Source: Escherichia coli (GTDB taxonomy: Bacteria > Pseudomonadota > Gammaproteobacteria > Enterobacterales > Enterobacteriaceae). From it: a stretch of DNA of 64,000 nt. The position numbers and the translations under genes are program-made. The stretch lies in assembly GCF_003790525.1 (NCBI RefSeq), contig NZ_CP033635.1; one strand, 5' to 3'. This document shows positions 3,935 to 55,170 of this stretch, in pieces; the stretch's first letter is position 1, and every line of letters starts with the position of its first letter. The notes under the pieces are model-generated. The model was given only the letters and a program-made list of their open reading frames with translations, made no database searches and had not been told where the DNA came from.

Positions 3935-4018
3935 GTAGGTATGATAAGACGCACCAGCGTCGCATCAGGCATTGTGTACAGAGCGGCGGATGAGGCAAAA
4001 ACGCCTTATCCGCCCGAA
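3935..4018. repeat. REP/BIME element cluster between ygaY and proX
   Basis: Sequence gtaggtatgataagacgcaccagcgtcgcatcaggc ... ggcggatgaggcaaaaacgccttatccgcccgaat matches the E. coli REP palindrome family. Confidence 0.7.
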
Positions 4019-34300: not shown

Positions 34301-35955
34301 TCGTCTATGCAGGTACGCTGGCGGATGCATCGGTCAGTGGCGCGACAGGAAGCCTGTCGTTAATGACGCCACGGGATAATGTTACGCCAGTTAAACTCGA
34401 AGGGGCGATCCGGATTACCGATAGCGCGACATTAACTATCGGAAATGGCGTCGATACGACGCTTACCGACCTGACGGCTGCCAGCCGGGGCAGTGTCTGG
34501 CTTAACAGCAATAATTCCTGTGCAGGTACCAGCAACTGCGAATATAGAGTAAACAGTTTGCTCCTCAACGACGGTGATGTTTATTTATCAGCACAAACAG
34601 CAGCGCCTGCCACAACTAACGGTATCTACAATACGCTGACAACCAGTGAACTTTCCGGCAGCGGTAATTTCTACCTGCATACCAACGTTGCAGGCTCCCG
34701 GGGCGATCAACTGGTCGTCAACAACAACGCCACTGGTAATTTTAAAATCTTTGTTCAGGATACCGGCGTCAGCCCTCAGTCTGACGACGCGATGACGCTG
34801 GTGAAAACAGGGGGAGGGGATGCTTCGTTTACGCTGGGTAATACCGGCGGTTTCGTTGATCTTGGGACCTATGAGTATGTCCTGAAAAGCGACGGCAACA
34901 GCAACTGGAACCTGACCAATGATGTCAAACCCAACCCGGACCCCAACCCAAATCCGAAGCCGGATCCAAAACCAGACCCAAAACCGGATCCGAAACCAGA
35001 CCCGACTCCCGATCCAACGCCGACACCCGTCCCGGAGAAACGCATCACGCCTTCTACGGCAGCCGTACTCAATATGGCAGCAACATTACCGTTGGTCTTT
35101 GATGCTGAGCTAAACAGTATTCGCGAGCGGTTGAACATAATGAAAGCGAGTCCACACAACAATAATGTCTGGGGGACGACGTATAACACCCGTAATAATG
35201 TCACCACCGATGCGGGTGCCGGGTTTGAGCAGACGCTGACCGGAATGACGGTGGGGATCGATAGCCGTAATGATATTCCTGAGGGGATTGCGACGCTGGG
35301 CGCTTTTATGGGTTATTCCCATTCACATATCGGTTTTGATCGTGGAGGACATGGCAGTGTGGGCAGTTATTCTCTGGGGGGCTATGCCAGCTGGGAACAT
35401 GAAAGTGGTTTCTATCTGGACGGTATCGTGAAGCTGAACCGCTTTGAAAGTAACGTAGCCGGTAAAATGAGCAGCGGTGGAGCCGCCAACGGCAGTTATC
35501 GCAGCAACGGGCTGGGCGGTCACATTGAAACCGGGATGCGATTTACCGATGGTAACTGGAACCTGACGCCGTATGCATCGTTAACGGGGTTCACCGCTGA
35601 TAACCCCGAATATCATTTATCCAATGGCATGGAATCGAAATCAGTCGATACCCGCAGTATATATCGTGAACTGGGCGCAACGCTGAGTTACAACATGCGT
35701 CTGGGGAACGGCATGGAAGTTGAGCCGTGGCTGAAGGCGGCTGTGCGCAAAGAATTTGTCGATGATAACCGGGTGAAAGTGAATAATGACGGTAATTTTG
35801 TCAATGATTTGTCGGGCAGACGTGGAATATACCAGGCAGGTATTAAAGCCTCATTCAGCAGTTCGTTAAGCGGGAATCTCGGGGTGGGGTATAGCCATGG
35901 TGCCGGTGTGGAATCCCCGTGGAACGCAGTGGCTGGTGTGAACTGGTCGTTCTGA
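31378..35955 (+). CDS. ypjA: AIDA-type autotransporter adhesin-like protein YpjA
   Basis: Signal peptide MKFMNRTSLHYCRRSVLSLWISALIYAPPGMA (alternative start 31387); long passenger with ~19-aa beta-helix repeats (GG.Q.V..GG.A..T.I); Pro-rich linker; C-terminal beta-barrel ending ...AGVNWSF. The track ORF starts at an upstream GTG (31258). Confidence 0.85.
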   Translation: MKFMNRTSLHYCRRSVLSLWISALIYAPPGMAAFTPDVIGVVNDETVDGSQKVDERGTTNNTHIINHGQQNVYGGISNESLIESGGYQDIGRHNNYVGQANNTTINGGRQTIHDGGISTGTIIESGNQDVYTGGISNGTTIKGGNSHISGGTANGTIIDGGSQRVTTQGHVDSTTINKSGSQDVVQGSLATNTTINGGRQYVEQSTVETTTIKNGGEQRVYESRALDTTIEGGTQSLNSNSTAKNTQIYSGGTQIVDYTSTSDVIEIYSGGVLDVRGGMATNVTQHDGAALKVTTYDLTVSGTNSEGAFSIHNNVADNVLLENGGHLDVYGSATRTIIKDKGTMSVLTNAKADATRIDNGGVMDVAGNATNTIINGGTQNINNHGIATGTNINSGTQNIKSGGKADTTNISSGSRQIVEKDGTATGSNISAGGSLIVYTGGIAHGVNQETGSALVANTGAGTDIEGYNKLSRFTIIGGEANYVVLENTGELTVVAKTSAKNTTIDAGGKLIVQKEAKTDSTRLNNGGVLEVQDGGEAKHVEQQSGGALIASTTSGTLIEGTNSYGDAFYIRNSEAKNVVLENAGSLTVVTGSRAVDTIINANGKMDVYGKDVGTVLNSAGTQTIYASATSEKANIKGGKQTVYGLATEANIESGEQIVDGGSTDKTHIKGGTQTVQNYGKAINTDIVSGLQQIMANGTAEGSIINGGSQVVNEGGLAENSVLNDGGTLDVREKGSATGIQQSSQGALVATTRATRVTGTRADGVAFSIEQGAANNILLTNGGVLTVESDTSSAKTQVNAGGREIVKTKATATGTTLTGGEQIVEGVANETTINDGGIQTVSANGEAVKTTINEGGTLTVNDNGKATDIIQNSGAALQTSTANGIEISGTHQYGTFSIAGNLATNALLENGGNLLVLAGTEARDSTVGKGGAMQNLGQDSATKVNSGGQYTLGRSKDEFQALARAEDLQVAGGTAIVYAGTLADASVSGATGSLSLMTPRDNVTPVKLEGAIRITDSATLTIGNGVDTTLTDLTAASRGSVWLNSNNSCAGTSNCEYRVNSLLLNDGDVYLSAQTAAPATTNGIYNTLTTSELSGSGNFYLHTNVAGSRGDQLVVNNNATGNFKIFVQDTGVSPQSDDAMTLVKTGGGDASFTLGNTGGFVDLGTYEYVLKSDGNSNWNLTNDVKPNPDPNPNPKPDPKPDPKPDPKPDPTPDPTPTPVPEKRITPSTAAVLNMAATLPLVFDAELNSIRERLNIMKASPHNNNVWGTTYNTRNNVTTDAGAGFEQTLTGMTVGIDSRNDIPEGIATLGAFMGYSHSHIGFDRGGHGSVGSYSLGGYASWEHESGFYLDGIVKLNRFESNVAGKMSSGGAANGSYRSNGLGGHIETGMRFTDGNWNLTPYASLTGFTADNPEYHLSNGMESKSVDTRSIYRELGATLSYNMRLGNGMEVEPWLKAAVRKEFVDDNRVKVNNDGNFVNDLSGRRGIYQAGIKASFSSSLSGNLGVGYSHGAGVESPWNAVAGVNWSF
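34930..35034 (+). repeat. Tandem Pro-rich (NP/KPDP/TP) linker repeat inside ypjA
   Basis: Encodes PNPDPNPNPKPDPKPDPKPDPKPDPTPDPTPTPVP from near-identical 12-nt units (ccg gat cca aaa / cca gac cca aaa). Confidence 0.85.
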
Positions 35956-36115: not shown

Positions 36116-36478
36116 TGGTGGAGCTGGCGGGAGTTGAACCCGCGTCCGAAATTCCTACATCCTCGGTACTACATGCTTAGTCAGTCTTTACATTCGCTTG
36201 CCAGCTGCGGACGGACACGCCACTAACAAACTAGCCTGATTAAGTTTTAACGCTTCAACCCCAGGCAGGGCTTCCACGCGATCTCTTTTGGGTTTGACCT
36301 CTCTTGATCCCCGTCCTAAGAGCGGAGGCTAGGGAGAGAGGGCTCTAAGCAGGTTATTAAGCTGCTAAAGCGTAGTTTTCGTCGTTTGCGACTATTTTTT
36401 GCGGCTTTTTACGAGGCCAACCGCCCCTCGGCATGCACCTTGGGTTTCGCAAATCCCGTCGAATCCAGAATCAGCCCC
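36116..36478 (-). ncRNA. ssrA: tmRNA (SsrA), 363 nt
   Basis: Reverse complement reads GGGGCTGATTCTGGATTCGACGGGATTTGCGAAACCC...GCGGGTTCAACTCCCGCCAGCTCCACCA; includes the tag reading frame region. Confidence 0.95.
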
Positions 36479-37175: not shown

Positions 37176-37306
37176 AAGCGTCGTGAATCATCGGTAATCT
37201 GAAATCGAAAACACCCCATATCAATCCTGCGGGGGACAAGGCTCTATCTTAGCATGAACCCGATGTTACCCAGCGCCGGGATAGCGTTTTTTTTACAGCA
37301 GGATAA

Positions 37307-37783
37307 ATGATATTATTTGTTGGATTTTTGTTGATGGAAATTGTTATGCCTCAGATTAGCCGGACCGCACTGGTACCCTACAGCGCGGAGCAAATGTATC
37401 AGTTAGTGAATGACGTTCAGTCTTATCCTCAGTTTTTGCCGGGTTGTACCGGAAGTCGGATTCTGGAGTCCACTCCTGGGCAGATGACTGCGGCGGTAAA
37501 TGTCTCTAAGGCTGGGATCAGCAAAACGTTTACTACCCGCAACCAGTTGACCAGTAACCAAAGTATTCTTATGAATCTGGTGGATGGGCCGTTCAAGAAA
37601 TTGATCGGTGGATGGAAGTTTACGCCGCTGAGCCAGGAGGCGTGTCGTATCGAGTTTCATCTCGACTTTGAGTTTACCAATAAGTTGATTGAACTCGCCT
37701 TTGGTCGCGTGTTTAAAGAGCTGGCGGCTAATATGGTCCAGGCTTTTACGGTTCGTGCGAAAGAGGTTTACAGTGCCAGGTAA
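37307..37783 (+). CDS. ratA: Ribosome association toxin RatA (PasT; START/polyketide cyclase-like)
   Basis: 158-aa [37 protein letters not shown]... (an internal start at MPQISRT is possible). Confidence 0.85.
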
Positions 37784-38063
37784 AATTGCCGTTGAGGTGG
37801 CTTATGCGCTACCTGAGAAGCAGTACCTGCAGCGTGTGACGCTGCAGGAGGGTGCGACGGTTGAAGAAGCTATTCGCGCCAGTGGCTTGCTGGAATTGCG
37901 TACCGATATCGATTTAACTAAAAACAAAGTCGGCATTTACAGCCGTCCGGCCAAACTGAGCGATACGGTGCATGATGGCGATCGGGTGGAGATTTATCGT
38001 CCTCTCATTGCCGATCCGAAAGAGCTTCGCAGGCAACGAGCAGAAAAATCAGCGAATAAATAA
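37773..38063 (+). CDS. ratB: RatB (YfjF/RnfH family)
   Basis: GTG-initiated [30 protein letters not shown]... overlapping the ratA stop; AAGAGG Shine-Dalgarno upstream. Confidence 0.8.
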
Positions 38064-38124
38064 CAGACAGAAAAAAGGTGCTCATTGAGCACCTTTTTTA
38101 ACCTCTTTGAGAGCAACTTTATTA

Positions 38125-54942: not shown

Positions 54943-54975
54943 ATAAAAAAGGCCCCCCGATTTGGGAGGCCTTAT
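54943..54975 (-). terminator. pheA attenuator terminator
   Basis: On the - strand: aggcctccc-aaatc-gggggggcct hairpin followed by a T-run, between pheL and pheA. Confidence 0.85.
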
Positions 54976-55019
54976 TGTTCGTCTTCGCATTCTGTTTCAC
55001 ACGACGAAACGCCTCCCAT

Positions 55020-55067
55020 TCAGGGGAAGGTAAAAAAGAATGCGAAGAAAAACGGTGTGTGTTTCAT
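55020..55067 (-). CDS. pheL: pheA leader peptide PheL (Phe-rich)
   Basis: - strand atgaaacacacaccgtttttcttcgcattcttttttaccttcccctga = MKHTPFFFAFFFTFP; 7 Phe codons. Confidence 0.9.
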   Translation of the reverse strand: MKHTPFFFAFFFTFP

Positions 55068-55170
55068 GTTTGTTTCCTTAAGTGACTTTAGTACAGTACC
55101 CGTACTGTTTTCACGCTGTCAACAAAAAACGCGCCCGAAGGCGCGTTGGCGATACACTCAATATAAAGGA

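Follow-up and report, generated by a model that had tools for sequence, protein, structure and literature searches.

The two-gene locus known in Escherichia coli K-12 as ratA-ratB (yfjG-yfjF, b2619-b2618) and in the UPEC strain CFT073 as pasT-pasI was originally described as a toxin-antitoxin system by Zhang and Inouye in 2011 and, for PasTI, by Norton and Mulvey in 2012, as summarized by later authors. According to this reading ratAB constitutes a true type II module: RatA is a toxin that prevents the formation of 70S ribosomes by binding to the 50S subunit, and RatB is its co-translated antitoxin. Fino et al. (2020), however, observed neither toxicity nor growth inhibition from pasT, recognized PasT/RatA as a Coq10 homologue and could complement its respiratory phenotypes with human COQ10 (PMC7424257). 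Fasnacht et al. (2025) found toxicity to arise only from a 158-aa form begun at a mis-annotated Met1, whose overexpression arrests growth and reduces polysomes, and this form (RatAfl) did not specifically co-sediment with the 50S subunit (PMC11988751). More recently, Fasnacht et al. (2026) reported that RatA binds ubiquinone-8 and contacts the Ubi metabolon, and that deletion of ratB is viable, and proposed that RatA be renamed UbiM (bioRxiv 10.64898/2026.05.04.722385). All these functional experiments were performed in K-12 and CFT073 and not in the strain analysed here. The smpB / START / RnfH / smpA (bamE) gene neighbourhood had already been described in 2006 (PMC1779556) and was described again in 2014.

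The window, that is the whole stretch of 64,000 nucleotides of E. coli DNA that was analysed, carries the locus orthologous to ratA-ratB of K-12 and pasT-pasI of CFT073, with the same GTG start and the same overlap. The following features were defined (coordinates, strand, description):

37307..37345, plus strand: legacy 13-codon N-terminal extension of ratA, most likely non-coding and made up of promoter and 5' UTR.
37308..37316, plus strand: extended -10 element TGaTATTAT of the ratAB operon, based on sequence and conservation, its first two bases being the last two of the legacy ATG (37307-37309).
37346..37783, plus strand: ratA (yfjG/pasT; proposed ubiM), encoding a 145-aa START/Coq10-type lipid-binding protein (PF03364, NF007999, 1t17_A).
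37761..37766, plus strand: ratB Shine-Dalgarno sequence AAGAGG (core GAGG, 37763-37766), located within ratA codons 6 nt 5' of the GTG and giving the best anti-SD duplex.
37773..37783, plus strand: region shared by the 5' end of ratB and the 3' end of ratA (…GCC AGG TAA), 11 nt with and 8 nt without the stop codon, the junction being kept in 72/74 loci.
37773..38063, plus strand: ratB (yfjF/pasI), encoding a 96-aa RnfH-family ubiquitin-like (beta-grasp) protein (PF03658, NF002490, 2hj1_A, 8ahx_H).
38071..38099, no strand assigned: bidirectional intrinsic terminator common to ratB (plus strand) and the convergent bamE (minus strand), with a 13-bp stem and A-run/T-run flanks.

Alignment with K-12, the check proposed along with the original prediction, bore out the gene assignment: the two loci differ at 10 nt in 957 nt, leading to one substitution in each protein (RatA D65N and RatB S65T), and are thus orthologues. 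Several E. coli genomes, SMS-3-5 among them, contained the 921-bp region with 100% identity; in SMS-3-5 it lies under the ratA and yfjF annotations, and the whole window matched SMS-3-5 with 99.989% identity by BLAST. The order ssrA, smpB, ratA, ratB, bamE, recN is the same in K-12 and in the window, with smpB, ssrA, bamE and recN as shared flanks. Among complete E. coli genomes the locus was detected in 5425 of 5426, with a median of one copy, and was chromosomal in 5428 of the 5429 places in which it occurred.

One difference from K-12 concerns ssrA. In K-12 the 3' end of this gene is occupied by the ∼22-kb cryptic prophage CP4-57 (intA onward), which is missing in the window, where ssrA (tmRNA, 36116-36478, minus strand) is directly adjoined by the ypjA/ehaD autotransporter gene (∼31387-35955, plus strand) within the segment 31258-36478. 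Further to the left, only remnants are indicated by the SMS-3-5 annotation, namely part of a recombinase gene, a ypjCB pseudogene interrupted by a stop codon and a tRNA-Ile gene (28181-28253). Other Rfam matches in the window were a REP-type naRNA4 (3938-4015), the pheA leader (54943-55068), the RyfD sRNA upstream of clpB (58374-58512) and, at 61510-64000, an rRNA operon with 16S, tRNA-Glu and the first part of 23S, which continues beyond the window end.

Profile and structure searches placed both products firmly. RatA matched the Pfam family Polyketide_cyc (PF03364) with E = 2.2e-38 and 131.8 bits (cut-off 23.4), the NCBIfam equivalog NF007999 with 302 bits (cut-off 258) and the structure 1t17_A with E = 3e-19. 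It thus has the same START / Polyketide_cyc domain as mitochondrial Coq10 and bacterial START ubiquinone-binding proteins such as Caulobacter CC1736 (PDB 1T17). Unlike RatA, however, Coq10 and most of its bacterial homologues are solitary, and an overlapping rnfH-family partner occurs only in beta- and gammaproteobacteria, as judged from PMC7424257 and the loci compared here. As the window RatA differs from that of K-12 by a single residue, we infer that it likewise binds ubiquinone and supports aerobic respiration. RatB matched PF03658 (Ub-RnfH) over profile positions 1-83 of 83 with E = 1.9e-35 and 121.4 bits (cut-off 23.7), the NCBIfam equivalog NF002490 with 154.7 bits (cut-off 75), the structure 2hj1_A with E = 3e-28 and RnfH of the Azotobacter vinelandii Rnf complex (8ahx_H) with E = 1.4e-13. 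RatB is an RnfH-family ubiquitin-like protein and not an antitoxin. Four database proteins that appear to be RatA-RatB fusions (P0004, P0007, P0121 and P0123) consist of RatA-like or unrelated N-termini joined to RatB, e.g. one beginning with 'MCIRDS…'; these are frameshift or adapter chimeras and no natural fusion, and were also rejected as evidence of programmed frameshifting.

The reading frames of the region comprise an ATG-initiated ORF of 158 aa (37307..37783, plus strand) together with another one, in frame +1, that ends at 38063. The original prediction had taken position 37307 as the start of ratA, which is the legacy, mis-annotated Met1 of K-12. The true start of ratA is the ATG at 37346 (Met14), in agreement with the PGAP annotation, the NCBIfam model, the published experiments and our comparison of relatives: PGAP places ratA in the SMS-3-5 record at what corresponds to window positions 37346..37783 (145 aa), and the NCBIfam RatA model begins at residue 14. 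For the comparison, diverse RatB homologues were aligned and one genome per species was scanned, yielding 80 loci from Enterobacterales, Pasteurellales, Alteromonadales, Vibrionaceae (Vibrio), Aeromonas and several Betaproteobacteria. The codon aligned with Met14 was ATG in 72/72 loci. Among the 50 close loci (RatA identity of at least 65%), the 13-codon extension was present as an open, in-frame ATG reading frame in just 15, and the extension peptide was conserved only at those residues whose codons form part of the -10 box. The motif TGnTAnnnT, on the other hand, preceded the Met14 ATG by 38-44 nt in 47 of these 50 loci; in 29 of the 47, its frame differed from that of Met14. A motif that is conserved while its frame shifts behaves as an extended -10 promoter element and not as a start codon.

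These observations are in accordance with the transcript data for K-12, whose sequence at the -10 box is identical to that of the window. There, a sigma-70 -10 box lies inside the annotated ratA ORF and the transcription start, determined by primer extension and dRNA-seq, is downstream of Met1, hence the 158-aa RatA is not made from the native promoter; mutation of the -10 box abolished the ratA mRNA, and the native promoter yielded RatA-delta14 only (PMC11988751). In the window, the -10 box was identified by eye and by conservation. A consensus promoter scan, which requires a -35 hexamer, detected no plus-strand promoter upstream of ratA; the scan missed it because the promoter has no good -35 hexamer and is of the extended -10 type. 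The divergent intergenic region between smpB and ratA spans 170 nt (37176-37345) and contains a weak hairpin with a T8 run (37272-37294) just 5' of the ratA promoter. Promoter-like hexamers on the minus strand (37340->37312 and 37334->37307) overlap with the -10 box of ratA in a head-on arrangement, and the divergent smpB and ratA promoters may share or compete for one AT-rich element.

The start of ratA bears directly on the toxin-antitoxin reading. The growth arrest upon overexpression cited above belongs to the Met1 form, which natively is neither transcribed nor translated (PMC11988751), and the extension that distinguishes this form is missing or out of frame in most relatives. A native toxin is thus not found here, the extension not being conserved coding sequence and its ATG lying in the conserved -10 box. 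Nor is the distribution of the pair patchy, multi-copy or mobile, as the near-universal single-copy occurrence in E. coli documented above demonstrates; it is a single-copy core pair in E. coli and keeps the same housekeeping position across the beta- and gammaproteobacteria, unlike mobile, patchy modules. The resemblance to type II modules consists in a small two-gene operon, overlapping genes and historical naming, and the overlapping two-gene layout is indeed reminiscent of toxin-antitoxin operons; ratAB, however, lacks a native toxin, antitoxin binding, mobility and patchiness, has the 'toxin' gene first and is a core locus. Current database names still favour a toxin, as K-12 RefSeq lists a 'ribosome association toxin RatA' and the NCBIfam name for RatA is 'type II toxin-antitoxin system toxin'. 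As cited in the 2026 preprint, Norton and Mulvey moreover reported that PasI relieves the toxicity of PasT overexpression in liquid culture, a conflicting finding. According to the same preprint, neither a RatA-RatB complex nor neutralization by RatB was observed in the original study, and ratB can be deleted without loss of viability, as mentioned. Together with the lack of growth inhibition and of specific 50S co-sedimentation noted at the outset, this makes a genuine type II module highly improbable. The original prediction's label 'ribosome-association toxin locus' is accordingly outdated, since no toxicity was observed (PMC7424257) and only the mis-annotated long form is toxic (PMC11988751); according to current evidence, the locus is a housekeeping gene pair for the handling of ubiquinone, not a toxin-antitoxin system directed at ribosomes.

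The junction of the two genes corresponded to what had been predicted. Reading frames and RefSeq coordinates agreed that ratB starts with a GTG within the last codons of ratA, with an overlap of 8 nt. The last sense codon of ratA ends at 37780 and is followed by the TAA stop codon (37781-37783), so that initiation at GTG 37773, giving a product of 96 aa, results in an overlap of 8 nt of sense codons, GTGCCAGG, or of 11 nt when the stop codon is counted as in the RefSeq coordinate convention. RefSeq/PGAP places yfjF at exactly 37773..38063 on the 100% identical SMS-3-5 sequence. GTG 37773 was the sole candidate start of ratB preceded by a well-matched Shine-Dalgarno sequence (GAGG, 37763-37766, with a spacer of 6 nt), and its anti-SD duplex reached -6.5 kcal/mol as compared with -3.2 kcal/mol or weaker for the other in-frame candidates. 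The alternative starts GTG 37755, GTG 37797, TTG 37689 and TTG 37701 had weak Shine-Dalgarno sequences, were not conserved and were rejected.

In order to follow the junction through the relatives, the loci with ratA directly upstream of ratB on the same strand (73 of the 80) were compared together with the window, giving 74 junctions. In 72 of these, the homologous ratB start with the best Shine-Dalgarno sequence overlapped the end of ratA, the overlap measuring 8 nt in 39 loci, 11 nt in 23, 4 nt (ATGA) in six, 17 nt in two and 20 nt in two. This recurrence argues against chance: as judged from the sequences compared, the overlap is an old and conserved feature of the gene pair, and adjacency together with overlap persists down to ∼35% RatA identity. 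The chosen ratB start codon was GTG in 55, ATG in 17 and TTG in two of the 74 loci. In 15 loci the overlapping codon was the sole possible start of ratB, which fixes the start independently of annotation. The bases G-A-G-G were found at -10 to -7 of the ratB start in 56-60 of the 72 loci; as the ratB Shine-Dalgarno bases double as codons for Lys-Glu-Val of RatA, however, their conservation is confounded with coding constraint. The only two junctions in which no overlapping start was found were those of Acerihabitans arboris and of an Alteromonadaceae MAG, where the genes seem to be separated by 163 nt and 70 nt, respectively, which could be due to an insertion between ratA and ratB or to an N-terminally extended RatB.

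Coupled expression of such junctions has precedents. Translationally coupled overlapping pairs with ATGA and 8-11-nt overlaps, as in junctions of the trpB-trpA type, are well known from bacterial operons. The ratA-ratB junction resembles these in that both genes lie on the same strand, the downstream start is placed in the 3' end of the upstream gene, the Shine-Dalgarno sequence is embedded in the latter and the overlap is conserved, here in 72/74 loci. It differs from them in having no predicted inhibitory mRNA structure, coupling being deduced here from geometry. Folding of 37715-37835 revealed no RNA structure masking the ratB ribosome-binding site (z = -0.25), and the Shine-Dalgarno sequence was predicted to be unpaired; coupling by unmasking of RNA structure is thus unsupported, and any coupling would have to proceed by termination-reinitiation or by ribosome proximity. 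By the same token, ratB could equally be initiated independently. As the overlap is conserved along with an internal Shine-Dalgarno sequence, coupled expression of ratAB is nevertheless plausible, and the arrangement of start, stop and Shine-Dalgarno sequence makes translational coupling from ratA to ratB a plausible, geometry-based proposal.

Further data bear on co-expression of the two genes. The promoter scan detected no promoter-like site between ratA and ratB on the plus strand. The terminator at 38071-38099 downstream of ratB had a minimum free energy of -18.7 kcal/mol (z = -4.56), and none of 200 shuffled sequences folded as well. A terminator-like match inside ratA (37650-37665) had a weak stem, with a match count near that of shuffled sequence, and was rejected. 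In the experiments of Fasnacht et al., deletion of ratA lowered RatB with a log2 fold-change of -6.75 (bioRxiv 10.64898/2026.05.04.722385), which could be a transcriptional or polar effect.

The conserved overlap leaves room for a reading in which ratA and ratB are mere neighbours on one transcript with independent functions, the overlap reflects genome compaction, and RatB works with Rsx/Rnf and not with RatA. Several lines of evidence point in this direction. The K-12 annotation of yfjF reads 'putative component of the Rsx system'; the Rnf structure 8ahx contains a homologue of RatB, the RnfH subunit, which contacts RnfB and RnfC; and a two-hybrid assay revealed binding of a RatB-like protein of Legionella to an RnfB homologue (PMC11445079). 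Moreover, ratA alone complements all phenotypes of a ratAB deletion (PMC7424257; bioRxiv 10.64898/2026.05.04.722385), and the predicted fold leaves the ratB Shine-Dalgarno sequence accessible. Seven Pasteurellaceae loci, which count on the same side, contained ratB with no adjacent ratA, none being present within ±3 kb (L055, L057, L059, L061, L063, L067 and L070). The genes next to these solitary ratB copies differ; in L063, for instance, they encode an EamA transporter together with a JmjC protein, and in L057 a molybdopterin oxidoreductase together with an ABC ATPase. Haemophilus-type species are not known to possess ubiquinone, and the loss of ratA in Pasteurellaceae may track the loss of ubi genes while ratB is kept. 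As solitary ratA genes are also common (PMC7424257), the partnership of RatA and RatB is not obligatory. Adjacency with overlap in 72/74 loci and down to the RatA identities given above is, however, stronger than would be expected for unrelated neighbours, and co-expression of PasI has been reported to relieve the toxicity of PasT overexpression. On balance we regard wholly independent neighbours as rather unlikely, although deserving consideration.

The Rnf relationship also bears on what RatB might do. RnfH of A. vinelandii Rnf1 (PDB 8AHX chain H; Rnf, for Rhodobacter nitrogen fixation, being a ferredoxin:NAD+ oxidoreductase) belongs to the same PF03658 family as RatB, and both are small, cofactor-less cytoplasmic beta-grasp proteins. 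In contrast to rnfH, ratB adjoins ratA and smpB and lies outside the rnf/rsx operon, and rsxABCDGE of E. coli is devoid of an rnfH gene. RatB further carries a conserved basic tail, ADPKExRRxRA. A speculative proposal, which we consider improbable as it stands, is that RatB acts as a stoichiometrically co-translated adaptor, through which RatA/UbiM in its role of ubiquinone shuttle, or else the quinone pool, would be docked onto a redox complex of the membrane, e.g. Rsx/Rnf.

Taken together, the best explanation of the locus, in which we have high confidence, is a chromosomal housekeeping operon ratA-ratB with an extended -10 promoter, a 145-aa ubiquinone-8-binding RatA and an overlapping ratB whose expression is probably coupled. 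The operon (yfjG-yfjF, pasT-pasI) sits in the conserved smpB / ratA-ratB / bamE neighbourhood and would be transcribed from the extended -10 sigma-70 promoter TGaTATTAT at 37308-37316; as this promoter overlaps the legacy 'start codon', the mRNA would begin downstream of the legacy ATG. Translation of ratA from ATG 37346 would yield the 145-aa START-domain bacterial homologue of Coq10, which would bind ubiquinone-8 and help to deliver it to the respiratory chain, and is not a toxin. Translation of ratB would begin at GTG 37773, 8 sense nt before the end of ratA and downstream of the GAGG Shine-Dalgarno sequence inside ratA. With both elements inside ratA, ribosomes finishing ratA would stop 8-11 nt past the ratB start and beside its ribosome-binding site, and RatB synthesis would probably be tied to transcription and translation of ratA, either by termination-reinitiation or by a local hand-over of ribosomes. 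The ratAB transcript would end at the bidirectional terminator at 38071-38099. In this model, the present analysis contributes gene identity, the geometry and conservation of the overlap, the terminator and the finding that both the -10 box and the Met14 start are conserved, whereas the transcription start, the use of Met14 as the sole start, ubiquinone-8 binding and the absence of toxicity come from the literature on K-12 and CFT073. The locus, the overlap and the reinterpretation have all been published already.

The annotation of the pair is not uniform. RefSeq of K-12 keeps the 158-aa ratA and the toxin name, whereas PGAP-annotated genomes including SMS-3-5 use the 145-aa start. For the K-12 entry (NC_000913.3, 2754008-2754764, L084) ratA is called 'ribosome association toxin' and yfjF 'putative component of the Rsx system', and in PGAP genomes, e.g. 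NC_010498.1 (L001), the names are 'type II toxin-antitoxin system toxin RatA' and 'RnfH family protein', an inconsistency within RefSeq.

Comparison at the level of sequence only thus independently supports the legacy ATG as part of a conserved extended -10 box, and the overlap as ancient. The name 'RatA toxin' and the 158-aa start are widely propagated artefacts that call for caution in annotation, and scans that include ratAB among toxin-antitoxin systems, which is the practice in surveys of E. coli lineages, will over-count such systems. Were the adaptor role of RatB true, it would explain both the conserved overlap across beta- and gammaproteobacteria and the existence of rsx operons without an rnfH of their own.
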